The translations under genes were made by a program, and so were the position numbers. From NCBI GenBank assembly GCA_963765495.1, contig CAVXWP010000009.1:640001-704000 (forward strand): a stretch of DNA of 64,000 nucleotides, given 5' to 3'. Each line of letters starts with the position of its first letter. Within the stretch, counting starts at the first letter, position 1. The stretch is from Blastocatellia bacterium. GTDB lineage: Bacteria > Acidobacteriota > Blastocatellia > UBA7656. This document shows, one piece after another, positions 8,076-32,301 of the stretch. The notes beneath the pieces are model-generated. The model made no database searches. It was not told the DNA's origin and was given only the letters and a program-made list of their open reading frames with translations.

Positions 8076-8148
8076 GGGCGCTTAGCTCAGTCGGTAGAGC
8101 ACTGTCTTCACACGGCAGGGGTCACTGGTTCGAGTCCAGTAGCGCCCA
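8076..8148 (+). tRNA. tRNA-Val(CAC), no encoded CCA
   Basis: GGGCGCTTAGCTCAGTCGGTAGAGCA; anticodon arm CTGTC-TTCACAC-GGCAG; T-loop GGTTCGAGTCC; acceptor end AGCGCCCA. Confidence 0.97.
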
Positions 8149-8155
8149 CTTTTAG
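8107..8155 (+). repeat. attL core
   Basis: TTCACACGGCAGGGGTCACTGGTTCGAGTCCAGTAGCGCCCACTTTTAG, identical to 31925-31973. Confidence 0.95.
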
Positions 8156-8169
8156 AATCAATTAATTAC

Positions 8170-8194
8170 AGCCACCTGCGAGGTGGCTTTTCTT
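8170..8194 (+). terminator. Intrinsic terminator after tRNA
   Basis: AGCCACCT-GCG-AGGTGGCT followed by a T-rich tract. Confidence 0.75.
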
Positions 8195-8357
8195 ATTTAG
8201 TCAACCATATAGTCAACCATTGGCCTTCATGTCTTAATTTGGATGGTCTAAGAGAAATACCTGCATTGTTGTGAGATTTCAATTTGTTGGAATTGATCGA
8301 GGGAATTCATCAATTCAACTATGAAGGCAGGTATTAGGCAAGCCAAACCCTTCTAAT

Positions 8358-17448: not shown

Positions 17449-19198
17449 ATGCCAAAGACTGATATTTCGGTTTCTGAGCTTGTGGAAATGATTTCCAGAG
17501 GGGAACTTCGTCTCCCCGAAATGCAACGGCGCTATGTCTGGACCTCGACTCGTGTGCGCGATCTGCTTGACTCGCTCTATCGCGCCTACCCTTCCGGCAG
17601 CATACTCGTTTGGGAGACGGATCAAGCACAGCCCAGTAGAAATCTGGCAGTGCAACAAGCTTTTAGCCCGTTCGCCGGTCACAAACTCTTGCTGGATGGT
17701 CAACAGCGCCTCACTTCCCTTTCCGCTGTATTAAGAGGCGAACCTGTTATTGTGAAGAATAGAAAGCGGCCTATTGATATAGCTTTCAATCTGGATCATC
17801 CCGATGGACCGCCCGCTGAAATCCTTGAGATTGAGGACGATTCTACTTCTATGAACGGTGATGACGAAACCATAATGGAAGGTGAAGACGATGAGTACAC
17901 GCCTTCGATTCAAGAACGCCTCAGACAGCGTACCTTTGTCGTAGCCAGCCGCGCACTGTTGTCCTCGCCATCCTGGGTTTGGTTTCGGATATTTTCAAGG
18001 GAGAGCGAGCGACTGGCAACTGGTAAAGGGTCTGGTCTCTTCGCCTGATGATCCTGGTTATGAAGTTTATACCCGCCGTCTTCAAGCAGTAAGAGCCATT
18101 CGCAATTATATGTATGTCATGCAAATCCTTCCGCGAGACTATTCCTATGAAGAGGTCACGGAAATATTTGTGCGCGTCAACTCTCTGGGCATCAAGCTTC
18201 GCGGTTCGGACTTGGCTCTGGCTCTCGTCACCGCAAAATGGCCTAATTCGTTAAAGCTATTCGAGGAGTTCATTGATGAGTGTGAGGAAAGCTGGTTTAC
18301 GCTCGACCTCGGCCTGATCGTTCGCACTCTGGTTGTTTTCGCAACTCAGCAGAGCCGCTTCCGCACCGTAAGCTCATTGTCAAAGGAAGTGCTGGAAACC
18401 GCATGGGAGAAAACAAAAGATGGATTGCGATTCTCGATCAATTACTTAAAGGCAAACGCGGGCATCGAAGATGAAACGCTTCTTTCTTCGCCGTTCCTGA
18501 TGATTCCTATCGCCGTCCTGAGCGTGTTACGCGATGAGCGGTTATCGAGTGAAGATGAGCGCAATCTGTTAAGGTGGCTATACATCGCTAATGCTCGCGC
18601 TCATTATTCCAGTTCGAGCGAAACAAAACTGGATGCGGATCTGAATCTTCTCTTTCGCGGAAACGGGCCTGAAAGCTTGATGGGGCCTTTGGAGAGCCAG
18701 TTTGCCCGATTGATTATCGAGCCATCCGATTTTACGGGCCGTGGAGCGCGTAGCGCCCTATTCTCATTAGCCTATCTGGCGCTCAAGCACGCGGGCGCAA
18801 AGGATTGGTTTTCGGGGCTTGGTCTATCGCTTACTCATCAGGGCAGATACCATTTCATTCAGTTCCATCATATCTTCCCAAAATCGCTGCTGCAAAAAGC
18901 CGGATATGAAAAGGCTGAGATTAACGAGATTGCCGACATGGCTTTCATCACCGGTCGAACGAATCGCCGTATATCCAACAAAGCCCCGATTGATTACTTC
19001 AAAGATATAATTGCTCAACGTGGCCAGAAAGCATTGATCCAACAGCAAATCCCTATGGATGAAAAGTTATGGAAAATAGAGAATTATCGGGAATTTCTTG
19101 AAGAACGCAGAAAGCTTCTGGCCTCAATAATCAATGAGTTTATAAACCGGGCCTATGAGACAGGGGCCGTAGCGATGATTCAAACTGACAAAGACTGA
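17449..19198 (+). CDS. GmrSD-type (DUF262 + HNH) restriction protein; apparent frameshifts near 17980-18010
   Basis: LPEMQRRYVW, LLDGQQRLTSL, IFVRVNSLG, HHIFPK; split into ORFs 17449-18048 and 18110-19198. Confidence 0.85.
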
Positions 19199-19245
19199 AC
19201 CTTCAGTAGCTCTCAATTAAACAACCGGACCAAGAAAGGGTAGAG

Positions 19246-22200
19246 ATGCCGAGAAAGAAATCATCGAAGACTTCGGAAACTTCCGTAATAGATTATCGCC
19301 ACGAGGCAAAACGAAAGACAACCCGCCCGCAGGAATAGCTGCACGAGGCATGGTGCGCGAATCTCCAAAGGTCGTCTATGAGTATAATCCTCATCTGCCG
19401 CCTGTCTTGCGCTCGGACCCTACAGCAAGCTCAGATGTATTGCCCGAACTATTGAACATAGCGCGCACTCGCGCACTGACGGCCGAAGAGGCCGAGACGC
19501 TGGCCAATGCCCTACGTAACCACGAGCCGTGGCTTGAATGGGCAGGCAAGCGCGAGAAGAAAAGTTTTGAAGTTGATCCGGTTGCGCTCCACATCCACGA
19601 GCGCATCTCGACACAGGCAATCCTCAAGGTGGCAAAGCGCGAGGATGTTCAGCGGTCGCTGTTTGCCGACCCAGAGCAGGATTACCGCGAGGCCGTTCAG
19701 TTCTATCAGCACGATGTAGACTGGACAAACCGGATGATACTCGGAGATTCGCTGCAAGTAATGGCGAGCCTTGCGCGAAGAGAAGACCTCGCGGGCAAGG
19801 TGCAGATGATCTACATCGACCCGCCGTATGGGATCAAGTTCGCGTCAAACTTTCAGCCCGAAATAGGGAAGCGCGATGTTAAGGACAAAGAGAGCGACCT
19901 GACGCGCGAGCCTGAAACGGTGAAGGCATATCGAGATACTTGGACGCTCGGCGTGCATTCATATCTGGCGTATTTGCGTGATCGGTTTATTTTTGGCGAA
20001 AGAATTGCTCGCGGATACAGGTAGCATCTTCGTGCAGATTGGAGATGAGAATCTTCATCACGTCAGAGAGTTGCTGGATGAGATATTCGAAGCGCAAAAT
20101 TTTTGCAGTGTAATAACACTTGTTAAAACCGCTGGACAAAGTGCCGAGCTTGTTCCTAATGTATGTGATTATCTGCTCTGGTATGCAAAATCAAAAGAGG
20201 ATATAACATTCAATCAAACCTTTCGAGAAAAGATAGCTACCCCAGAAGAAGCTGGTCATTACAGTTGGGTGTTGTCGCCAAATGGAGAAATGCGAGGGCT
20301 TCGAAAAGAGGAACGTGAGGGAAAATCAGTTTTGCCAGAAGGCGCGAAGCTATACGCCCCTACCTCGCTTACCTCACAGGGTGGCAGTTCCGAAGGTCCA
20401 TTTCCGTTTGATTATGCAGGGCAGACATATACAATTCCTGTACGTGATCACTGGAAGACAAACTTACAAGGCATGGCGAGGCTGGCTCAAGCAGACAGAA
20501 TTCATATCGCTGCAAACAGTGTCCGATTTGTTCGATTCCTGGATGATTTTCCTGCGATACCACATACAAATTTTTGGGATGATACCGCTACCGGCAATTT
20601 TACAGAAACAAAAGTTTATGTCGTTCAAACAGCTACGAAAATCATCGAACGCTGCCTTCTAATGTCAACAGACCCAGGCGACCTTGTGCTTGATCCGACC
20701 TGCGGAAGTGGCACGACAGCTTTTGTTGCAGAACACTGGGGTAGACGATGGATCACGATTGATACCAGCCGCGTAGCTCTCGCTCTGGCTCGTCAAAGAT
20801 TGATGACCGCAACTTTTCCCTTCTACACGGTTAAAGATAGTAATGAGCAAACAGATGATACAGCCAATCCCGCCAAAGGCTTTGTCTATAAAACTGTCCC
20901 GCATATCACGCTCAAAAGCATTGCCCAGAACGTCGCCCTTGATTCCATTTTCGCAAAACATCAACCTCTGCTCGATGCGAAGCTCAATCATCTCAACCAC
21001 GCGCTGAAATCTGTATCATCAGAATTGCGTCAAAAGTTGCTGACAAAACTTAAAGAGAAAGAGAAACGCGACGGCAAGCGGTCTGTCACCGACGCCGACC
21101 GCAGACGTTGGATTTTGCCTAAAGGCGAGTGGATGGAGTGGGAAGTTCCATTCGATACGGATGAGGATTAGCCCGATCAACTCAAGACGGCTCTCGAAGA
21201 GTATCGCGCTGTCTGGCGCTCAAAGATGGATGAAGTTAATGATTGCATCGCCGCAAGCGCCGATCAGGAAGAACTCGTTGACCAACCCGAAATCGAGCGC
21301 AAGGTTGTGCGCGTCTCCGGCCCGTTCACAATGGAAGCCGTTATGCCCGCCGAAGAATCGCTCGAATGGGAATCGCCCATTGGCGGTCAACCCGACGAGC
21401 TTGAAACCTTTAATCAACAGGCCGAGGCCGAAGATGATCCCATCAATGCCGAAGCCTACCTCGACAAGATGCTCAGATTGCTCCGCGCCGATGGGGTCCG
21501 TTTTCCTAATAACAAAGTCGCCGAGTTTACTCGACTGGAAGCGATCAGCGGCGGCGAGTATCTTCACGCCGAAGGCGAATGGGAATCCGAAGACGGGCAG
21601 GCGCGAGCCGTCGCCGTATCCTTTGGCCCGCAATTCGGACCCGTGACCGCCTTTCAGGTTGAGAACGCATTGCGTATGGCCTACCGTAGAGGATTCGATG
21701 AACTGGTCTTTGCGGGGTTTAGTTTCGACGCCTCGGCTCAGGCTATAATTCAAGATGATACAAATCCGAATGTGCGATCTCATCTGGCTCACATTCGCCC
21801 CGATGTGAACATGGGCGATCTGCTGAAAGAGACTCCAAATAGCCAGATATTTACGGTGTTCGGCAGCCCGCGCACAAGTATTGACCAGACGGATGAAGGG
21901 CTATTCGTAATCGAGATGGAAGGCGTGGACATCTATAACCCCGTAGACAATACCCTCCTCCCCACGAACGCCGATAAAGTAGCCGCATGGTTTTTGGACG
22001 CCGATTATGATGGGCGGACGTTCTGCATCACTCAGGCATTCTTTCCAGACAAGAGCGCGTGGAAGAAACTGGAACGAGCCTTAAAGGGTGTGATTGACGA
22101 AGATCATTTCGATGTTTTCAGCGGCACTACATCCCTGCCCTTTCCGGCAGGCAAGCATAAACGAGCGGCGGTAAAAGTGATTGACCCGCGAGGCAACGAG

Positions 22201-22257
22201 GTCATGCGCGTTCACAGGTTATTCGGCAAAGGGGAGGCGCGATATGGTGACTCCTAA
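19246..22257 (+). CDS. Type III-like R-M DNA methyltransferase (N4/N6, beta class); apparent frameshifts at ~19318 and ~19990, TAG at 21169-21171
   Basis: NRMILGDSL, IYIDPPYG, VLDPTCGSGTT, C-terminal KVIDPRGNE. Confidence 0.9.
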
Positions 22258-25200
22258 TCAGCTTGAAATACCCGTTCAACCTGTCAACAAGCCTATCCTC
22301 TGTAATCCTTATGATGAGCCGGACAAGCACTGGCTTTATGATACGGTCACAGGCGAAGCGAGGGAGGAACCGGGCAGGCGACCCGCGAGTTACTGGTTTA
22401 AAACACAGCGAACCGGCGCTGTGCAGGCGCAACTGTTTGCCGAAGAAGAACGCGACGATCTTCCTCTGGTCAATGCCTTGCGCGCCGACGTGGGCCGATG
22501 GCGAAGATCGAACTACGAAGGCGCGACACAGGTAACAAAGACTCTGCTCGCCTATTGGGCGCGCGAAGACCGCCCGCGCCGCTTCTTCTTTTGCCAGCGC
22601 GAGGCCGCAGAGACGATCATTTATTTGACGGAAATCTCTCGTCCGGTAAGCGATCCAGATGGAAACCCGATGTGAGTCTTGACGATTACCGGCGACTTCT
22701 CAAAGGCGAGCGACCTTCGTTTCTGGGGACGGGAGCACAGCTTAGAGTTTATCCCGCACTAATTGACCACCCGAACGAATCGGGGTTAGAGGCTCTAACT
22801 CGCTATGGCTCAAAGATGGCAACGGGCAGCGGAAAAACCGTTGTGATGGCAATGCTCGTTGCGTGGGCCTTCTGCAATCGTGGCCGTGTGCCGGGCGATG
22901 AGCGTTTCCATCGGCGGCGCTCGTAGTCTGCCCAAATCTGACAGTCAAGGAGCGGTTGCAGGTTTTGCGGCCTGATAACGAAGACAATTACTATTCGGCC
23001 TTTGATGTTGTGCCTTCGCAATTGATGCCTGAGCTAAAGAAGGGCAAAGTGCTTGTGACAAACTGGCATTTGTTCGCGCCCGAATCCGACATGTAGAAGG
23101 CGGCAAGAGTTATACGGTTGTCAACAAGGGGCCGGAAGGCCCCGATGCATTCGCCCGGCGAGTGCTCGGAGACCTTTACGACCGCGCGCCTGTGATGGTC
23201 TTAAACGACGAGGCGCGTCATGCCTACCGCCCCGCACCCGTAGAGGAAACCGAGCGACTAAACGCAGCCGAAAAGGCCGAACGCGAAGAGGCTACTGTCT
23301 GGGTGTCTGGATTGGACAAAATCAATCAGGCTTGCGGTGTGCGGTTCTGCGTAGACCTTTCGGCAACGCCATTTTACTTGCAGGGCAGCGGCTATATCGA
23401 AGGCTCGCCTTTACCCTGGCTGGTCAGCGATTTCGGGCTTGTTGATGCTATCGAGTCGGGCATAGTCAAAATTCCTCGCCTGCCTGTGAGCGACACAACG
23501 GGGCGACCTGAACCAAAATACTTTGCCCTCTGGAAACATATCACTGATCGTCTTCAACCGGGCGAGAAGCTCCCCGGTGGCAAACCTAAGCCTGAGATAG
23601 TATGGCGCGAAGCCGAAGACGCGCTCATCACTCTTGCCAGCCAGTGGAAGGAGCGATACGAGTACATCGAGCAAGCCTCATCTGAAAAGGAGAAGACGCC
23701 GCCCGTGATGATAATAGTCTGCGATAACACGGACATCGCGGAATTGTTTTACAAGAACATATCAGGCGAAGATGTTATAGAAGTTGTGCCGGAGGATGAC
23801 GACGAAGAGGATGAAGAAGACAGACCTCGACGCAGGCGAAAGAAGAAGGCCAAAACCAAAACCGTTTACGGGACAGGCAAGATATTCCCTGAACTCTTCT
23901 CGAATCGAGAGGGCTTTCGCGCTACGTTGCGAATAGATTCCAAGTTATTGGCCGAAGCTGAGAGCGAAGACCCGAAGGTCAGCCGTAGCGATGCCGCAGA
24001 AGAACTCCGCGAGATTGTCGCAACCGTGGGCAAACCGGGCAAGCCGGGCGAACAGGTGCGCTGTGTCGTGTCTGTGCAGATGTTGACCGAAGGCTGGGAT
24101 GCAAACAACGTAACTCACATTCTTGGGTTGCGAGCATTCGGCAGCCAGTTATTATGCGAGCAGGTTGTCGGGCGCGGATTGCGAAGGATGGATTACACGC
24201 CTGACCCTGAAACGGGAAGGCTCACCGAAGAGTATGTAGACGTTTACGGCATACCGTTTTCAGTCATTCCCTTCAAAGGAAGAAAGCCAAACAGCCTGCG
24301 CCCGAAGACAAACCAAAAAATCAGGTTCGAGCCATGCCTGAGCGAAGTCAATATGAAATGCGTTTTCCTGTCATCGAAAGATATGCCTTCGCCTTGCGCT
24401 CAAATCTTATTAAAGCGGACATCGGCAAAATGCAAATGCTTGTTTTGCAGCCATCGCACACGCCAACGGCCATATTCGTGAAACCACAGGTAGGCATTCA
24501 GATGGGAAGCCCGAATATTGGGGGCGGGTTTGAGTTTGACGAGCAAGACCGGGAAGCCTATTACACGAGTACGCATTTGCAGACCATCAAATTCGAGATA
24601 GCCCGGCAGGTAGTCTATGCTCTGACGGAGGGAGTCGGTGAGGCGCGGCCCCGGTTGCGGCTTCAATCGCGTCATCAGTTATTTCCACAGGTAATGCGAC
24701 TGGTCGAAGATTACGTTAGCCGAAAAGTTGATTTTCATGGATGTCATTCGTGCGAACTGGGATTGGAAACATACGTCAAGCGCACGGTCGAGCGATTGCT
24801 TGATGCCATCGAGCCGGATGATGAAAAAGGCGAGCCTCCGCTCCTGCCGATCCTCAATCGCTACAAACCAATCGGGTCAACGTCGTCGGTGGATTTCAAG
24901 ACCACACGGCCCTGTTACCACACAGCAAAGAGCCACATCAACTTGGTGGCTGCCGATACAGCGACGTGGGAACAATCTGCGGCATTTAGACTTGAGCAAT
25001 CGAAGAATGTCGCTTTCTATGCTCGCAATGACCATCTTGAATTTGTAATCCCGTATGAATACTTGGGAATCGGTCATGCCTACACTCCCGACTTCATAGT
25101 GCGGCTGGCTAACGGTGTGACTCTCGTGCTGGAAATTAAGGGCTACGAGGACGACCAGGACCGGGCCAAGCATCAATCCATGCAACGATGGATTTCAGCC

Positions 25201-25299
25201 GTCAATAATTGGGGCAAACTCGGTCGGTGGGCTTTTCATGTCTCGAAAGACCCAGATATGTTGGGGCGGGAATTGGAATGGATTGTCCGTGATACTTGA
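22244..25299 (+). CDS. Type III-like restriction helicase/endonuclease; apparent frameshifts at ~22637, ~22908, ~23090 and ~24285
   Basis: FFCQREA, KMATGSGKT, NDEA[R]HAY, LSATP, MLTEGWD, QVVGRGLRR, YTPDFIV...LEIKG. Confidence 0.9.
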
Positions 25300-25349: not shown

Positions 25350-26273
25350 TCATTTCGCCACTCTAAACCGCCGCGAGCCAGTAACTACTGATCCATCCTG
25401 TCGCTGACCCTTTACAGGCTCTATTCTTATACTTTCTTCTGGTGATTTCGGTGCAAGTTGCTTTGGCTCTGGTTTCGTTGCCCTTTTGCTGTGCTTGCGC
25501 CTGTTGACACTGTTAGACTCTTTCCTTGCCGGTTTCTTTCTCTGTTTATTCTTCTGCACATTTACCTGCTGCCCGCCATCGGCTGCGATATTTACCTGCT
25601 GCGGGTTATTGATCGTCACCGGCAGATTGTAGCGCCGTAAATCACGCAATTGGCGAAGAGTCCGCAGGAATAACCGATTATATCTATCTGCCATCTCAGT
25701 AGCCTGTTGCGCATCTGCATCCCCAGTCACAGAAACCGCTCTCCACTTGCCTCCTCTTTCTTTTATCTGATACGTCTCTTCTTGACATTCTATCGCCACT
25801 CGCTGCACCGAAAGCTCCATCCAGTGCTCATACGTCGTGTAGAGGTGCGCCATCATCTCGATCAGCCTCATCTCTATACTTCCTGTCGGCCTCCAATCAG
25901 TAATGAATGATTCGCGTAGTGCCAGATAGCGAGCCTTTATCCAGGGGCGCATCATCGAACTTGCAACGACATCGGCCGCTCGTTCCCCGCTTTCCAGGTC
26001 TTCACGAGCAAGCTGTTTGATATGGTCGTAAACCTCAAATCCCGTTCCCGGCTCAACCTGCTCCGCATAGGAAAGCTCACGCCATTCAATACCGGCAGGG
26101 GCAGCATCAAGGAGTTGTTGTTTGTCGTAGCGAGCATAACCAAGGCCACCAATGCGTCCTTCGGCATCAGCTTTCAATGCCCTCCAATAAGCATCCGCCA
26201 TGCGGTGGGCGAGTGGTTCGATTTCCATCTCGATTAAGGCAGTAGGTGTTTCAGTTTTTTTTCTTGCGGACAT
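25350..26273 (-). CDS. Hypothetical protein of the satellite core operon
   Basis: Overlaps the upstream gene; LRTLRQLRDLRR...INNPQQVNIA; basic tail. Confidence 0.7.
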   Translation of the reverse strand: MSARKKTETPTALIEMEIEPLAHRMADAYWRALKADAEGRIGGLGYARYDKQQLLDAAPAGIEWRELSYAEQVEPGTGFEVYDHIKQLAREDLESGERAADVVASSMMRPWIKARYLALRESFITDWRPTGSIEMRLIEMMAHLYTTYEHWMELSVQRVAIECQEETYQIKERGGKWRAVSVTGDADAQQATEMADRYNRLFLRTLRQLRDLRRYNLPVTINNPQQVNIAADGGQQVNVQKNKQRKKPARKESNSVNRRKHSKRATKPEPKQLAPKSPEESIRIEPVKGQRQDGSVVTGSRRFRVAK

Positions 26274-26565
26274 AGGACTCAACCTCCCTGAGTTCGATTT
26301 GCAGATTTCTCCAAAGTTCAAAGTCAATATTTATCGTTTGCCTGATTCGGCGATTGGCTTGGCACAGATCACGAACGCGCTCAACATCACTCTTCCTGAC
26401 GTAAGCCTTGCGGAGTCTGCCGTCTTCGCGCCAGAAGCAATAGAAGTAGGGACCGTGAAGTTCGCCATTTGCACACTTGCATCCTGATTTGCCACATCGC
26501 ACGTATTGAGGGCAGAGGGCAGCAGGCAGATTCTTAGGTAACATTTCGGCTGTTTTTGTTTTCAA
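26251..26565 (-). CDS. DUF6788-like Zn-binding protein
   Basis: RCGKSGCKCANGELHGPY motif. Confidence 0.75.
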   Translation of the reverse strand: MKTKTAEMLPKNLPAALCPQYVRCGKSGCKCANGELHGPYFYCFWREDGRLRKAYVRKSDVERVRDLCQANRRIRQTINIDFELWRNLQIELREVESYVRKKKN

Positions 26566-26584
26566 TCCCGAACCTCATTTCTGG

Positions 26585-27004
26585 CTAACATCTTTTTTCA
26601 TCTCCCTCTTGATTCTTTGGATTGTCGTGTTGTCGTGACATTGCAAATTCAAGTGCTTGATTCGCGGCGCGGCTACAGGGAGTGCATTGGTAAGCGTCAC
26701 CGAAGTTCAATGGGTCGCCGCAACTCAGGCAGCATTCCTTCTGCGGCTCCACTGCTTCCCGCGCTACTAGAAATGGGATTGGTCCAACATCCGGTATCTG
26801 TGGCAGCATGGCTTTTACCCTCCAAGCTATATCAGTATCAGTAATAGCAATGAGCGCGATGACCTGAGACTTATGCTCTACCAGAGCTTCGCGTAATTCA
26901 GGTGTAACGGCTCCCCTTGGAGCATCAATCCGCAAGCGGTTGCCACTGGTTTCGATGAATATCCCCCGCTCGCGCAGTTCGGTTAACAACTCAACTGCGG
27001 TCAT
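26585..27004 (-). CDS. TubC-N-docking-like domain protein with C-terminal Zn finger
   Basis: ELLTELRERGI...LRIDAPRGAVTPELREALVEHK; CLSCG...CTPC; ATGA overlap with the primase gene. Confidence 0.75.
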   Translation of the reverse strand: MTAVELLTELRERGIFIETSGNRLRIDAPRGAVTPELREALVEHKSQVIALIAITDTDIAWRVKAMLPQIPDVGPIPFLVAREAVEPQKECCLSCGDPLNFGDAYQCTPCSRAANQALEFAMSRQHDNPKNQEGDEKRC

Positions 27005-29367
27005 ATTTCGAGCACCTCCCGCTCTACTTCCTCTTTTTGAGTCGCCACACTCGCCACAGACTTTGTTTTCAAAGAATTATCGCCATTTCCAGTCGCCACA
27101 GAATAGGCATCTTGTGGCGACTCAAATTCATTGTAAGTTGTTGATTTCAGGACTTGTGGCGAGTGTGGCGACTCGATCATCAGGTATCTGGCAAAGACAT
27201 CCTCAAAATCATTTCGCAAGTACCCTCGCTGTGTTTGGTCCCGCTCGCGCCATTTCGTAGGTTCGACTCCAAAAGGTTTAAGAAGGCGAGCTAATCCAAC
27301 TTTGCTTAAAGCCTTCCCGCTCTTATACTCTGCCCAAGGCCGTGATTCCATCTCGATGAGAGATTGAATTATTTCGTCTGATGTCAGCCGCTCCCGATCT
27401 TCAGCAAAGATTACTTTGAGGTCACCAAGCAACAATGTTCTGGCTGATTCCGAATCAGGCTTCTCACCGGCCATCGTTCGGGCGATAATGCGCGCTTCTC
27501 GCGGCCAGTCGCCACCAGCAGTATCGGCAATGGCAAACAATGGTCGCCAGTTGTCGCGTGCGCGGTCGTTAGTGATTTCAGAAGGGATATCAGGATCGGC
27601 CGCCCGAAGTTGTTTCTTCATTTCATCAACCCATCGAGCAGAGCGACGACGTAAGTGCTCAAACTCTCCCAGACGATCAAACCTTAGCCGCTCGATATTA
27701 TCGTTTGCGCGCTTGCGTTGTAAGCGAATGATAATGGCTCGATCTTCAAGTGTGCCGGGCAAGGCTCCTATTAAGGCTATCGCTTTCGGTGACCATGTAG
27801 TGAATCGCCGAGGTTCGTAATCTTCCCCTGTTGTACGAATGATGTAGCTGGTGGCTTTCCGATGTCCGCTATTGAGAATGCCTCTCAACTCCTCATTATC
27901 CGTTAAGAATGAATCCGCCTCATCAATCAGCAGGGTGGGTTGATATTTCTCTACGGTTCTAAATAGGGCGCTTGGAGTTATGTTTGCGACTGCGAGCGGA
28001 CGCGGGGCAAGCGCGTATAGCAGAGTCAAAAGCGTGGTCTTGCCGCATCTCTTCTCTGGACTGGTTATTGCGAGCAATGGAGAAATGTCGAATAGATCGA
28101 AAGCGTAGGTATAGACAATCCATAGAGCGATTGCCTTGAAAGTATGTTTGGAGGCCGAAAGGAAGCGGTTTACAACAGCAGTGATTTCGTCAAGCATGAT
28201 TGCGCCATCAACCGGCTCAGGCCACAGGGCAGGATCGCGCAAATCAAGCCCTTTTGATTCTTCCTCATCGCTCTCAAGTTTCGGCATTGCAACATCAATC
28301 AATCGAGCAGGACTTGAGAAGCCGCGCTCTTTGAGAATTTTTATAGCCTCCTCTCGCGCAATTCCTCGCGCAAGTTCATCAAGCGGTTTTACGGCATCAG
28401 CAAAGTCTCTGAATGCCTTCTCAATATCGGCAATCGTCGCGCCAACTTTGAGATTGCGAAGCGAAGCCAGGGCATCGTCGCTTAGATGTTTGCCGGGTTG
28501 AGAATGACCATGCTTGCCATTCGGTTGCTCAGGCAGTCCAAACGAATGAAGCAATGCTGCATGAAAGCACCCTTTCTGGCATCTGACTGCGCCTGTGGCC
28601 GGATTGAACATGATGCCCGCATCGCTTTTGGGAACATGGCAGCGCGCACGGCAGTGATAGAAGCCGTCACCATTTTGCTTCGCAGTCGGATCATACATGA
28701 TGCGCCGCCTGAGTTCAGCATTAAGCTCATCCCACGTCGAATAATTTGAATTGGTATCAGTATCTTTGCTCATCTGTTCAACCAATCGCGATGATTCTTG
28801 GGCAGTCTCGATAATTTTGCGCCAGTTCAGCGTCTTGCCGTCAAATAGGTGATACTCATAAGGCGCATCGGGTAAAGCCTTCGCTGGCATATAAAACATT
28901 CGAGATTCATCTTTTGCCTGCGGATCAATCTTGCCGCCTGAGACTTTGGCAGCCCATTGCCAAAGCCGCGAAAATAGCGAAGATGGGACAGGTTCAGATA
29001 AAGGGATGATGATGCGAAAACGCTCTTCCACTGTTGGATTTGAAATAACGACACGCCTATGCGAATGAGTCGTATAAACCCCGAAGCAAAAACCCAGATC
29101 AAGCCAGGGTTGTAGATCCTCATCAAGCGCGGCGTGATGGTCATAATCAAGCACCAGCATAGAAATCTCGGTGACATTTGCCTTTTTCCGCTCAGGTGGT
29201 TTGAAGGTCGCGGGTGAGAATAGCGGACCATCCTTTTCGGCGCGCACAACTGGACAAGCAAGATACCTGCATATAGCAGCCCAATCGTGATGAACGATCT
29301 GCGGGGATTTGTCATGCTTGCTCTTGAATAATGAAATTGCGTAGCTCAAGCGCCCTCCCATTCTCAA
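27001..29367 (-). CDS. Primase-like / DUF3631 replication protein
   Basis: N-terminal VLDYD, YTTHSH, RFRIIIPL and DESRMFYMP (AEP-like); SPEKRCGKTT P-loop; LLIDEAD; RARDNWRPL. Confidence 0.85.
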   Translation of the reverse strand: MRMGGRLSYAISLFKSKHDKSPQIVHHDWAAICRYLACPVVRAEKDGPLFSPATFKPPERKKANVTEISMLVLDYDHHAALDEDLQPWLDLGFCFGVYTTHSHRRVVISNPTVEERFRIIIPLSEPVPSSLFSRLWQWAAKVSGGKIDPQAKDESRMFYMPAKALPDAPYEYHLFDGKTLNWRKIIETAQESSRLVEQMSKDTDTNSNYSTWDELNAELRRRIMYDPTAKQNGDGFYHCRARCHVPKSDAGIMFNPATGAVRCQKGCFHAALLHSFGLPEQPNGKHGHSQPGKHLSDDALASLRNLKVGATIADIEKAFRDFADAVKPLDELARGIAREEAIKILKERGFSSPARLIDVAMPKLESDEEESKGLDLRDPALWPEPVDGAIMLDEITAVVNRFLSASKHTFKAIALWIVYTYAFDLFDISPLLAITSPEKRCGKTTLLTLLYALAPRPLAVANITPSALFRTVEKYQPTLLIDEADSFLTDNEELRGILNSGHRKATSYIIRTTGEDYEPRRFTTWSPKAIALIGALPGTLEDRAIIIRLQRKRANDNIERLRFDRLGEFEHLRRRSARWVDEMKKQLRAADPDIPSEITNDRARDNWRPLFAIADTAGGDWPREARIIARTMAGEKPDSESARTLLLGDLKVIFAEDRERLTSDEIIQSLIEMESRPWAEYKSGKALSKVGLARLLKPFGVEPTKWRERDQTQRGYLRNDFEDVFARYLMIESPHSPQVLKSTTYNEFESPQDAYSVATGNGDNSLKTKSVASVATQKEEVEREVLEI
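27039..27174. other. Putative replication origin: symmetric TCGCCACA iteron array with IHF-like site
   Basis: Three direct and three inverted copies; 20-bp outer inverted repeat; TAAGTTGTTGATT at 27134-27146. Confidence 0.65.
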
Positions 29368-29370
29368 TCA

Positions 29371-29595
29371 TCACGACCGTACCTTTGCCTCGACGCGCCG
29401 AGCGCAGTTTGTCTTGAAGTCTTCAAGTGATTGAGAGTCGTAAAGAACCCTACGTCCGACTTTGAAATATGTGATGAGTTTCTTGGATTTGTAAATATTT
29501 AGCTGCGCTCGACTGATCTTAATTCTTTGCAGAAACTCACGTTCACTCATCAATCTGTCCATATCATCATTAAGTGCTGTGACTGCGGTGCTCAT
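29371..29595 (-). CDS. Excisionase/AlpA-like HTH protein
   Basis: LMSEREFLQRIKISRAQL...ITYFKVGRRVLY...LEDF; RBS GGAGG. Confidence 0.8.
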   Translation of the reverse strand: MSTAVTALNDDMDRLMSEREFLQRIKISRAQLNIYKSKKLITYFKVGRRVLYDSQSLEDFKTNCARRVEAKVRS

Positions 29596-29611
29596 AGTTC
29601 CCTCCAATAGA

Positions 29612-29653
29612 TAAAAAATAGGCAGTGGCGTTATTGATGTTCACCACTGCCTA
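29612..29653 (-). terminator. Intrinsic terminator just upstream of the excisionase-like gene
   Basis: Minus strand TAGGCAGTGG...CCACTGCCTA followed by TTTTTT. Confidence 0.75.
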
Positions 29654-29717
29654 CACATTACTATGGCTGTCGAGGACTAAATTACGAATTTAGTCCGGTG
29701 AGAATTCAATTGGTTCT

Positions 29718-30506
29718 TTAACTTCTCAGCCTCAAAAACTTAAAGATGATTCTGGGCCATCTCTGGCTGTCACCTTGTAATTCAGGGTAATAGCGATCTA
29801 ACTCCTTCCTTAGCTGGCGTTCGGTAAAACTTCCGTTCCCATTCCTTATGAGTCTATCAATCTCGTGTGCTACTCGCTCCTCATGAAAGGCGTTATCCGC
29901 TTGAGCCAAACCAAAAGCCGTTTGCAAAGTTCGTTCAAAGGCTTCTTTGCTGGTGAATAGCGGTGGACGACCACGTCTGGCTGTCTTTCGGCTACTCCGT
30001 TCAGATCCCGCAGCAATGTCAAGTTTGTTGATTGTGACCTCTACACGCCACGAATCGTTCTCTGGAGGAAAGGGGGATAGCCCGGTTATAAGCATGTCGT
30101 TGTCAGGATTGGTAGATACAGACGGGGCATCAAGCTTATGTTGGGATTGTCTGGTTTTGCTGACCCCTAATTCGAGATTGCAATACTCACCGCGATGCTT
30201 TGTTGAGAGCAATTCGTCATCTTCATTGGAAGCACACTCATATACTGCATTCGGATCAACAATCACAGCATGATGTGTTTCGGTGTCGGGCGGACCATAA
30301 TTGAGCGAAACACCTGCGTAATAGCTCTTTCCTGGGGTTGCCACACTCCCTGACTCTATCTGCCCGCTAATATCTTCAACAACAGCATCCCCTGGGCAGA
30401 TAGGCAACTTGGACGAGGCAGCCTTCTTTACAAACCTTATAAGGGGCGGCCCACCATGAAGGGATGCCAATAAATTGAGTCCTCCAATCTTCTCCTCCTT
30501 GTCCAT
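29718..30506 (-). CDS. Two-domain protein: phage capsid cement/decoration-like N-domain plus RGRP/HTH-like C-domain
   Basis: RBS AGGAGG; GDAV...GVSLNYG...VIVDPNAVYE...S.H.LD...RVEVTIN; C-terminal RRGRPPLF...TERQLRKEL. Confidence 0.7.
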   Translation of the reverse strand: MDKEEKIGGLNLLASLHGGPPLIRFVKKAASSKLPICPGDAVVEDISGQIESGSVATPGKSYYAGVSLNYGPPDTETHHAVIVDPNAVYECASNEDDELLSTKHRGEYCNLELGVSKTRQSQHKLDAPSVSTNPDNDMLITGLSPFPPENDSWRVEVTINKLDIAAGSERSSRKTARRGRPPLFTSKEAFERTLQTAFGLAQADNAFHEERVAHEIDRLIRNGNGSFTERQLRKELDRYYPELQGDSQRWPRIIFKFLRLRS

Positions 30507-30524
30507 AATGAGCCTCCTGATTCT

Positions 30525-31720
30525 TCAGCGGATTATTTCCTTTGGTTTTTGTGTTTCCTCTTTTGAATTGAACTCATCGAGTACCGCAGCAGCCCTCTTT
30601 GCAGTCTCTACATTAGCATTCACATAACGATAGGTCGTATTAGCCTGAGTATGCCCGAGAACTCGCCCTACCTCAGACAGAGGGACATGGCCAGATACAA
30701 GCCTTGTGGCGTGCGTGTGGCGCAGGTCGTGAAATCTCAGATCGGGAAGCCCTGCAACTATTCTAGCCTTGCTGAATGCTTTTTTGACGTTTGCTACCCC
30801 AAACACAAAACCATCAGGATTGAGGGGGGAGCTTTCCCACAACGCCTGTAGCTCTTGGGCCAGTCGTGAGGTAATTGCAACTTGGCGCTGCCTCATGGTC
30901 TTGGTATTGAATGCCTGTATGTTGACAAGCCCGTTCTCAAAATCAATATCTGACCATTTGAGCTTGAAAATTTCGCCTCGGCGCATCCCAGTATCCAAAG
31001 CCATGATGACGATGGGCCTTAAATGTGCCTTCGCTCCTGTGCATACAGCCAGCAGTTTTTCTTCTTCATCACGAGTCAATATCCGCTCCCGATGCCTTTC
31101 ATCGCCCGGATTGATGAGAGAGTTACCCATCACAAACGGGTTCTTGAGAATCCAGCCGTTTTGCTACGGCAACATTGAAGACTCGGCGAAGCAGGCTCAA
31201 CTCTTTATGAACGGTTCCGATGGATCTTTGTCGTTCTGTTTGATTTCCTGGCTTATCCGTTCCGCGTGTATTTTTCCCAAATACAACAGGAGTTTTAAGC
31301 CTGATGGATTTGAAGCGTTCCAAATCGCCATGCGTGATGGATTTTATTTTCTCCTTCGCAAAATAGTCTGTGAGGATGTTCAGGCGCAGTTGAAGTTCAT
31401 AGCGACTCCTATAGCCCGCAACTTTCCTGCCGTCCACATATTCAGGTTCTACAAGGTAGGTTCGCTGGTAGTAGTCGGCAAGCTGGGCGAATGTCATATT
31501 GGATGCGTCAATCGCCTTCTCTCCCTGTCCTTCGATCTCCCCAAGCATTTTCTTGGCAAGCTCACGCGCCGCTGTCTTCGTATTATCTTCGGGCTTCTGT
31601 AGCCATTGGCGCCGCTTGCCTTGTTTGTCTATAGGTTATGCAAGCAAACCATCGCTTGATCTTTTTGCCGTTTCTGACTTTCCATTTGTAGATCGCCGCA
31701 CCTGTTTTGGGCCTTGCCAT
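30525..31720 (-). CDS. Tyrosine recombinase/integrase; apparent frameshifts near 31600 and 31130-31165
   Basis: TGMRRGEI, FHDLRHT, LGH...TYRY; RBS GGAGG before ATG 31720; adjacent to attR. Confidence 0.92.
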
Positions 31721-31924
31721 AGCATACCTCCTGCATAAAAGTGGGCTTGCGAACCATTGAAGTTTGACAGATTTGGTCAAACAAATGGTCAAACATTGAA
31801 GCCCGACATCAGCAGACAATGAATTGACATCACTAGACAATCATACTTGTAAACGCTCGCAAATAAAAGATTTTCTATACACGAGTAGGCGTTGCTAGAC
31901 ATCGAAACACAAGGTATTCCTGCA

Positions 31925-31973
31925 TTCACACGGCAGGGGTCACTGGTTCGAGTCCAGTAGCGCCCACTTTTAG
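31925..31973 (+). repeat. attR core (displaced tRNA-Val 3' half)
   Basis: Identical to 8107-8155. Confidence 0.95.
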
Positions 31974-32301
31974 GATCAACAAATTACAGCCGCCCTTAGA
32001 GGTGGCTTTTCTTATGTTGTCATTCATATAGTCAATCATTTTACATTTCACCTCTTAATCCGGGATTGGCTTAGAAAGATGGCTATCTTGTTGTGAGATA
32101 TGTGTTCGCCAATCCTTCTCTTCACTTGAAATTCAGCCTTTCTATGTCAACGCGCGTCGAGCGGGCGGTCAGGGGTCGGTGGCGACATTTACGAAGAAAC
32201 TCATTCTGTTTCTCACAATTTCCTCCTTTCACTGAATACCGGTCAGTGACAGTTGACTGGCTATGGGATTTGCTAGGATGACGGGCGATCAGATGTTGCG
32301 A

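Follow-up and report, generated by a model that had tools for sequence, protein, structure and literature searches.

We focus here on one gene, ORF262 (an open reading frame, ORF, of 262 residues), in a stretch of 64,000 nucleotides (nt) from a Blastocatellia bacterium (GenBank assembly GCA_963765495.1, contig CAVXWP010000009.1, positions 640,001 to 704,000), referred to below as the window and numbered from its own first letter. ORF262 lies between an integrase gene and a small xis-like gene of an integrated island and very probably encodes a chimeric protein, in which a domain related to phage head decoration (cement) proteins is followed by a basic, helical domain. The stop codon of its upstream neighbour, which encodes a tyrosine recombinase catalytic domain (PF00589, E = 3e-30), is 18 nt ahead of its ATG. 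The gene, its parts and the features just beyond it are as follows.

29718..30506, minus strand: ORF262, the entire putatively chimeric gene, 262 residues plus stop, ATG start
30513..30518, minus strand: strong ribosome-binding site AGGAGG, 6 nt upstream of the ORF262 ATG
30003..30506, minus strand: N-domain, residues 1-168, predicted as a diverged beta-tulip domain of the head-decoration/cement type; its relatives mostly match phrog_37556
29949..30002, minus strand: linker, residues 169-186, basic, of low model confidence, holding a conserved GRP arm (RRGRPP)
29721..29948, minus strand: C-domain, residues 187-262, four predicted helices, isoelectric point (pI) about 10, without a family match
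29674..29696, strand not applicable: perfect 10-bp inverted repeat with a 3-nt spacer, 22 nt past the ORF262 stop
29610..29653, minus strand: terminator-like hairpin (29619-29653, 10-bp stem, 15-nt loop) and then a T-run, just before the xis-like gene; not flagged by the automated terminator scan, whose limit the loop exceeds

ORF262 itself has no match in Pfam, PHROGs, NCBIfam or PADLOC. A word-indexed search of 5.8 billion proteins returned five close relatives (P0001-P0005, 61-99% identity), four of them full length or nearly so at 61-69% identity; P0002-P0004, at 65-69%, keep both domains. A profile built from five sequences was then run with HMMER against 1.84 billion representative proteins and found 90 proteins at E <= 1e-3. 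The C-terminal part is present in five of these (P0004, P0001, P0006, P0091 and the 92-residue P0077), and the remaining 85, of 92-232 residues, match query positions 1-178 only. P0006 (249 residues, 42% identical in the alignment) and P0091 (274 residues) are more distant fused forms in which both halves are again kept. Since relatives keep both halves, ORF262 is, on sequence grounds, a conserved gene and no chance ORF. Its family occurs in two of 101 related genomes, one of which has the stand-alone form only, and in one of 401 genomes sampled across the phylum. P0001, from another assembly, is 99% identical to ORF262 and ends at 211 residues, with a different tail after residue ~207, as if the C-domain had been frameshifted.

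Relatives and predicted fold of the N-domain

Decoration and cement proteins are known as virion parts; they bind to the surface of the capsid, usually as trimers that occupy three-fold sites. The clearest sequence link between ORF262 and such proteins is a 171-residue stand-alone relative in a genome of the same family, G015 (profile E = 1.1e-21), which is 36% identical to ORF262 residues 9-161 (BLASTP E = 9e-21). It is encoded 38 nt upstream of a 309-residue capsid gene, which matches Phage_capsid_4 (E = 1.3e-15; capsid gene families PF25209/PF10124), Mu-like gpT (E = 4.6e-14) and PHROG 371, 'major head protein'. Farther upstream in this prophage are an ORF of 263 residues rich in Glu, Gln and Lys, a portal gene and a large terminase gene. 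Between the portal region and the scaffold-like gene of its head module is an opposite-strand ORF of 354 residues with a weak transposase match (PHROG 720, E = 2.5e-4; locus L007, 7612-8676, minus strand).

The same arrangement is seen in phage genomes. The stand-alone member P0009 matches four phage records, and in all three that were inspected (Roseobacter phage CRP-902, Alcaligenes phage vB_Af_QDWS535 and an uncultured podovirus; the fourth match, CRP-901, lay outside the inspected set) a family member is directly upstream of a Mu-gpT-like major head or capsid gene. Together with the G015 prophage, stand-alone relatives thus stand directly before Mu-gpT-like capsid genes in four of four contexts. 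The order common to OQ401624.1, OK172329.1 and MW202785.1 (L003-L005) is portal (or a large gene), GroES-like co-chaperonin, a gene for ~260-310 residues, a gene for ~140-165 residues, the family member and the Mu-gpT-like capsid gene; the small proteins of this head module are all annotated as hypothetical.

An alignment of 90 sequences was assembled from ORF262, P0002-P0006, P0091, P0077, the G015 ORF and 81 further HMMER matches, leaving aside P0001 and the fragments P0029, P0039, P0043 and P0065. Of its members, 61 match phrog_37556, a family without known function (best E = 1.4e-17), the G015 member doing so at E = 5.4e-6. ORF262 alone has no PHROG match at E <= 0.1 and is tied to phrog_37556 through its relatives only. 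Judged by these matches, its N-domain is a diverged offshoot of a phrog_37556-type family rather than a typical member. A tblastn search with ORF262 against the phage records also gave no match, although this test is insensitive.

The context of ORF262 is different from that of its relatives. Stand-alone members lie in a head module beside the major capsid gene, as a decoration protein would, whereas ORF262 lies between int and an xis-like gene. The host assembly, which is 97.9% complete, contains no second family member (E <= 1), and the G015 capsid protein, PF25209 and PF10124 find no match in it. With neither a second member nor a cognate capsid gene in the genome, ORF262 appears to be an orphan copy outside any head module.

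The predicted structure points to the same protein class. With the 90-sequence alignment, the AlphaFold2 (AF2) model of ORF262 reaches a mean predicted local distance difference test score (pLDDT) of 90.9; with five sequences the score was 34 and the model unusable. The model is beta-rich to about residue 165, has a low-confidence linker at 171-177 and continues with helices at 187-202, 209-221, 229-239 and 249-259, the confidence of the C-terminal part resting on about eight sequences. In a fold search of the PDB, the best 10 of 336 matches are all chains of phage or virus heads (E = 5e-4 to 6e-3). Nine of them have a template modelling (TM) score on the target of 0.42-0.57 and a Foldseek probability of 0.96-1.00; the tenth, a phi29 prohead chain, has 0.28 and 0.85, respectively. 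These ten comprise chains of 129-166 residues in capsid reconstructions of HFTV1, Sf11, T1 and Pam3, two base chains of the phi29 head fibre gp8.5 and the 280-residue phi29 prohead chain. The PDB entry titles name no chains, and those from capsid reconstructions are far below the length of an HK97-type coat protein. Lower-ranked matches include a YSD1 capsid chain, lambda gpD, SHP and a Borrelia BB1 procapsid chain. In BFVD there are 21 matches at E <= 1e-3, and every one with an organism name is from a phage or an uncultured virus; the best have TM scores on the target of 0.6-0.77, and later ones include DUF2190, 'head fiber' and 'decorator protein D'. The Sf11 and Pam3 papers describe Sf11 gp40 (155 residues) and Pam3 gp6 as beta-tulip decoration or cement trimers at three-fold sites, and PMC7602432 defines the beta-tulip as an antiparallel barrel of five strands that has a helix between the third and the fourth and is joined to a mixed subdomain. 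The fold predicted for ORF262 residues 1 to ~168 is that of these beta-tulip proteins.

Among characterized proteins, the fold predicted for the N-domain agrees best with the decoration or cement proteins lambda gpD, phage 21 SHP, Sf11 gp40, Pam3 gp6, YSD1_16 and TW1 gp56. In lambda, the gpD gene precedes that of gpE, and the stand-alone relatives of ORF262 likewise sit right before a major capsid gene. ORF262, on the other hand, is found outside a phage, in a genome with no cognate capsid gene, carries an extra basic helical domain and has had several family-conserved positions replaced. The base of phi29 gp8.5, also among the top matches, is followed by a helical part, the same order as in ORF262. 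In gp8.5, however, this part is a long trimeric helical supercoil that forms a spike on the virion, whereas that of ORF262 is a basic, globular-looking four-helix domain of ~85 residues and, unlike the spike, is common to non-decoration proteins of sister islands.

An unrooted tree of 89 N-domains, without P0077, which has the C-domain only, sets the seven fused proteins apart on one side of a branch that has a Shimodaira-Hasegawa-like approximate likelihood ratio test (SH-aLRT) support of 95, and by this tree the N-domain was captured once. ORF262 keeps 28 of 48 family-consensus columns (consensus of at least 60% among 82 stand-alone members) and every near-invariant position: G9, G18, D40, G59, G65, N110, S121, D137 and N160, G9 and G18 being the N-terminal arm motif. 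Core positions are kept and others replaced, which argues that the fold has been retained and part of the surface altered. In the fused clade, conserved cysteines have appeared at positions 37 (30396-30398), 91 (30234-30236) and 109 (30180-30182); at 91 and 109 stand-alone members mostly have Ala.

An earlier note on this locus, made from the DNA letters, had likened the N-terminal part to head cement or decoration proteins of tailed phages, and this likeness is borne out by homology at E = 1e-21, by relatives beside capsid genes in all four contexts and by the beta-tulip match. The structural homologues that the note had proposed to look for were indeed phage proteins, in both PDB and BFVD. 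The motif string it quoted agrees with the translation, and its placement of the gene between int and xis is correct, with PF00589 upstream and a gene matching PHROG 66 downstream.

The C-domain, its slot and the island

Residues ~178-262 are predicted to form a basic domain of four helices that follows a conserved GRP arm. The C-domain has a pI of 9.5-10.8 in seven of seven sequences; the N-domains have a pI of 4.7-5.7 in six of seven, that of P0091 being 9.65. In a 10-sequence alignment the GRP residues themselves are nearly invariant (>=90%). An AT-hook-like arm has a GRP core with flanking basic residues, and RRGRPP (residues 177-182) is of this form, although the R ahead of the core varies (PGRP and SGRP in relatives). 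On its basic charge, the conserved arm and the helical prediction, the C-domain may bind DNA. A word-indexed search of longer proteins with the C-domain alignment returned five proteins: four already in the alignment (or their gene) and P0001.

Searches of the 101 related genomes with the C-domain profile gave one clear extra hit, a 244-residue ORF in genome G040 (G040:C61, E = 6e-9). Its last ~80 residues align with the C-domain; its first ~150 are unrelated to the decoration domain, having no hit from the full-length profile, and BLASTP aligns the C-terminal part only. No other relatives of this protein were found, and none among the phage records by the insensitive tblastn search. It lies between an intact 388-residue integrase, 71% identical to that of the window over the catalytic fragment, and an HTH_17 gene, a position equivalent to that of ORF262. 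A 283-residue protein of genome G026 (G026:C86) in the same slot also carries the C-domain: an iterated hidden Markov model (HMM) search of 134 downstream ORFs found it at E = 2.5e-4, and at about 4e-13 once it was included. Three other slot proteins score E = 0.02-0.07 with the C-domain HMM, which is not significant.

The slot itself recurs widely. Homologues of the G040 integrase at E <= 1e-30 occur in 57 of the 101 related genomes, and primase matches at E <= 1e-20 in 15. The slot census covered 30 listed integrase loci, 28 with downstream sequence; in 20 of the 28, a co-oriented ORF of 190-490 residues starts within 400 nt of the integrase match, and nine of these 20 have an xis-like ORF next, inside the 1.5-kb flank. 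In three loci without a slot ORF, the xis-like ORF comes directly after int. Among 31 slot proteins there are only 11 pairwise similarities at E <= 1e-3. The closest sister by backbone, G040:C54 (L052), is 65% identical to the window in int, 70% in the xis-like gene and 67% in the primase, and 36% and 40% in the TubC_N-like and DUF6788 genes, and its slot protein (327 residues) is unrelated to ORF262. ORF262 thus likely fills a hypervariable single-gene slot, occupied by modular proteins, in primase-bearing islands of related, Blastocatellia-type genomes; the slot is a new observation beyond the earlier note. That note had expected sister elements to swap the N-domain for other phage-derived domains. 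The swap is found, since G040:C61 and G026:C86 keep the C-domain, whereas a phage origin of the other N-terminal parts finds no support in four sister slot proteins, which have no tblastn match in the phage records, a test that is insensitive because ORF262 itself also finds nothing.

The island that carries ORF262 is delimited by a tRNA gene and a repeat of its 3' half. Its borders and the backbone genes near ORF262 are listed below.

8076..8149, plus strand: tRNA-Val (cac), attL side
25350-26327, minus strand: gene of unknown function, 325 residues
26251-26565, minus strand: DUF6788 gene, conserved in the sister island L052
26585-27004, minus strand: TubC_N-like gene, conserved in the sister island L052
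27001..29367, minus strand: primase-like protein with DUF3631, 788 residues
29371..29607, minus strand: xis/AlpA-like small helix-turn-helix (HTH) gene, 78 residues, PHROG 66 'excisionase and transcriptional regulator' (E = 3e-4)
30525..31720, minus strand: tyrosine integrase in three frames (31583-31720, 31123-31548, 30525-31133)
31920..31994, plus strand: attR, direct repeat of the tRNA-Val 3' half and following bases, 92% identical to 8102-8176

The repeat of the tRNA-Val 3' end at 31920-31994 gives an island of ~23.8 kb. Homology between the two ends runs ~105-125 bp past the tRNA-derived repeat (31994-32099 versus 8175-8277, at 85% and then 73%). The xis-like protein is 70% identical to its L052 counterpart and 28% identical to a G040 protein that matches Pfam HTH_17 (E = 2.3e-6). 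The cargo comprises a GmrSD/HEC-05-like gene, a type III methylase and restriction enzyme, a B12-radical S-adenosylmethionine (SAM) gene and tetratricopeptide repeat (TPR) genes. Several genes of the island look decayed. The integrase has two apparent frameshifts, near 31630 and 31140, and the defence cargo in 17449-25299 (plus strand) looks broken: the GmrSD/HEC-05-like gene is split (199 and 362 residues), the methylase lies in three ORFs (19350-20024, 19978-21171 and 21226-22257, plus strand) and the restriction enzyme in at least two (23162-24481 and 24334-25299, plus strand). ORFs outside the island are long (up to 1301 residues), which argues against a general assembly error. The 5.1-kb block from ORF262 to the 325-residue gene (25350-30506), on the other hand, is unbroken beside ~9 kb with, by a rough estimate, at least seven breaks.

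Possible roles of ORF262

From the sequence homology and predicted fold of its N-domain, ORF262 may enable the island to sense phage capsids or to interfere with them. The reading that we favour, if tentatively, and whose chances we put well short of even, is that of a modular island protein in which a decoration-derived domain recognises phage capsids and which may act as a sensor-regulator. The C-domain would serve as an anchor on the side of the island, through its DNA or one of its proteins, and the decoration-derived domain would recognise the capsid lattice or the major capsid protein of an infecting phage of the G015-prophage type. Capsid binding late in infection would then alter what the C-domain does at the island, in the control of induction or excision. 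That the N-domain has retained capsid binding is, by our estimate, somewhat less probable than that it has lost it, and a role of ORF262 as a regulator is doubtful. The logic would resemble that of the Stl repressors of Staphylococcus aureus pathogenicity islands (SaPIs), with a captured virion part as the sensor: in both, a gene beside the integrase would join a conserved part, which binds DNA or the element, to a highly variable one for recognition of a phage protein. The HTH of Stl is recognisable and N-terminal, its gene and xis/rep are transcribed divergently with operators between, and a helper protein lifts the repression. The mechanism put forward in the earlier note, in which the regulator would use its virion domain as bait and co-assemble with a helper capsid or cement protein, is conjectural. 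Host or island immunity proteins that directly sense the major capsid protein are also known, among them CapRelSJ46 (PMC9712102). CapRel does so with an antitoxin-like domain of its own and has a toxin effector, whereas ORF262 would use a captured virion domain and has no recognisable effector. It is further conceivable, though improbable, that islands of this kind (int, slot, xis, primase) in Acidobacteria use one hypervariable sensor-plus-anchor gene as a master switch, the captured cement protein here sensing assembled heads and other alleles sensing other phage products.

A good deal weighs against a sensor-regulator. ORF262 runs in the same direction as xis and primase, with a terminator-like hairpin after it, whereas Stl-type repressors are divergent; unlike in Stl, the conserved part is C-terminal and no HTH is recognisable. 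No Pfam family matches the C-domain or six relatives at E <= 10, apart from two unrelated weak hits, and the C-domain has neither an NCBIfam match nor a significant PDB sequence-profile match, so that a match to a DNA-binding family is lacking. RRGRPP and TERQLRKEL (residues 228-236), the second of which the note had read as HTH-like, are present in the C-terminal part; the HTH label finds support in none of the searches and is conjectural. A Hin/resolvase-like HTH, suggested by the GRP arm and '...L.RYYP', was rejected as unsupported at an hhalign probability of 0.4% against the HTH_7 alignment (five loci), with the GRP arm alone aligned, and the 6-9-residue loops that separate the predicted helices exceed the turn of a classical HTH. 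An atlas look-up of residues 172-262 gave a best score of 0.77, under chance level. The best PDB matches of a widened C-domain profile are calmodulin EF-hand lobes at E = 0.02-0.1, not significant, which would point to protein rather than DNA binding. Ten sister slot proteins have no Pfam family, and only one of them (L048) has weak HTH_Mga, HTH_30 and HTH_24 hits, below cut-offs (E = 0.003-0.11), at the place equivalent to the C-domain. In the N-domain, the fused clade sits on a long stem branch and uniformly replaces N3, Q92, N108, N149 and a 93%-conserved Gly in the last third, so that contacts once made with the capsid may have disappeared. According to PMC10945586, expanded, packaged heads are usually the only ones that decoration proteins bind, which would be late for a signal of satellite induction. 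The apparently broken integrase and defence cargo suggest that the island may be inactive. Finally, the loci of the fused relatives P0002-P0006, P0077 and P0091 were not found among the genome, viral and metagenome contigs searched.

The label of phage satellite, which the earlier note had given to the element, is conjectural. Of the features of phage-inducible chromosomal islands (PICIs), P4-like satellites and PICI-like elements (PLEs), the island has int, the xis-like gene and the primase module; the island ORFs scanned, which did not include every small ORF, hold no gene for capsid, terminase, packaging, scaffold or size redirection, and neither a helper phage nor a cognate capsid-family gene was identified, the latter in the host genome.

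The evidence from N-domain fold and family would apply equally to an effector directed at capsids, which we consider rather unlikely. Such a protein would dock on the three-fold sites of invading or helper capsids and would either sabotage them, taking the place of the phage's own cement protein as a decoy and exposing a basic domain, or stabilise hijacked capsids in the manner of P4 Psu. The C-domain without a DNA-binding family match is compatible with this role, the island holds defence cargo (the GmrSD/HEC-05-like gene and type III restriction-modification), and hypervariable single genes beside integrases are typical of defence hotspots. Satellite-encoded capsid-surface proteins do exist, P4 Psu and PLE TcaP being described in PMC7602432 and PMC10945586. 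However, no PADLOC model matches, conserved positions of the capsid-contact type are altered, there is no sign of island packaging, and the C-domain is found again in this slot of sister islands behind unrelated N-terminal parts, which fits an island-side anchor better than display on a capsid surface. Psu itself is a capsid-surface-type protein of a non-phage element with a second, regulatory activity (it inhibits Rho), and ORF262 may be like it in this respect; Psu is a knotted alpha-helical dimer and not a beta-tulip, and P4 has a known helper and is packaged.

The beta-tulip may instead have been reused as a general protein-binding module with a target other than capsids, in an island accessory factor acting, for example, in recombination or replication control, possibly with an EF-hand-like C-domain. 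The long stem of the fused clade and the loss of several family-conserved positions suit such reuse, as do the other slot alleles, in which no similarity to phages was found, and the weak calmodulin-like signal of the C-domain. The Pam3 paper calls the beta-tulip a general protein-protein interaction module, and the fold is said to occur in an anti-CRISPR protein (10.1101/216911). We nevertheless regard reuse as unlikely: homology to the phage family is strong (E = 1e-21), and the N-terminal arm motif and all near-invariant core positions are kept. The EF-hand reading of the C-domain is set aside as a lead only, calmodulin being over-represented in the PDB, the matches not significant and the domain strongly basic, unlike EF-hands. 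Alternatively, ORF262 could be a functionless relic, a phage gene fragment fused by accident in a decaying island, and the integrase in three frames, the defence genes in pieces beside long ORFs outside the island, the truncation of the 99%-identical P0001 within the C-domain and the great rarity of the family all point that way. It is nonetheless very improbable in view of P0002-P0004, which have kept both domains at 65-69% identity, of P0006 and P0091, which have done likewise, of the intact start and ribosome-binding site of ORF262, and of the unbroken 5.1-kb block that begins with it.

A beta-tulip decoration domain fused to another domain in a non-viral island is not described in the abstracts and text passages surveyed of the literature on phage satellites and decoration proteins (PMC7602432, PMC10945586, PMC9942802 and PMC12724387 included), and a literature search for exapted capsid decoration proteins returned no paper. 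If the domain still binds capsids, as the sensor-regulator reading supposes, ORF262 would be a natural case of an element that detects or manipulates phage heads with a stolen head part, and would offer a concrete handle on the conflict between phages and islands in Acidobacteria, where phage genetics is almost absent. Whatever its function, a recurrent hypervariable gene slot between integrase and xis-like gene has been defined, which can be mined for further modular proteins.

The spacer between slot and xis-like gene was compared in four islands. It has no palindrome in G040:C61, where it is 49 nt long, and it opens with one in the other three: the window (29674-29696), L023 (3604-3623) and L052 (3440-3471, reverse strand). 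These palindromes differ in sequence between islands, even between the window and G026, which share the C-domain.

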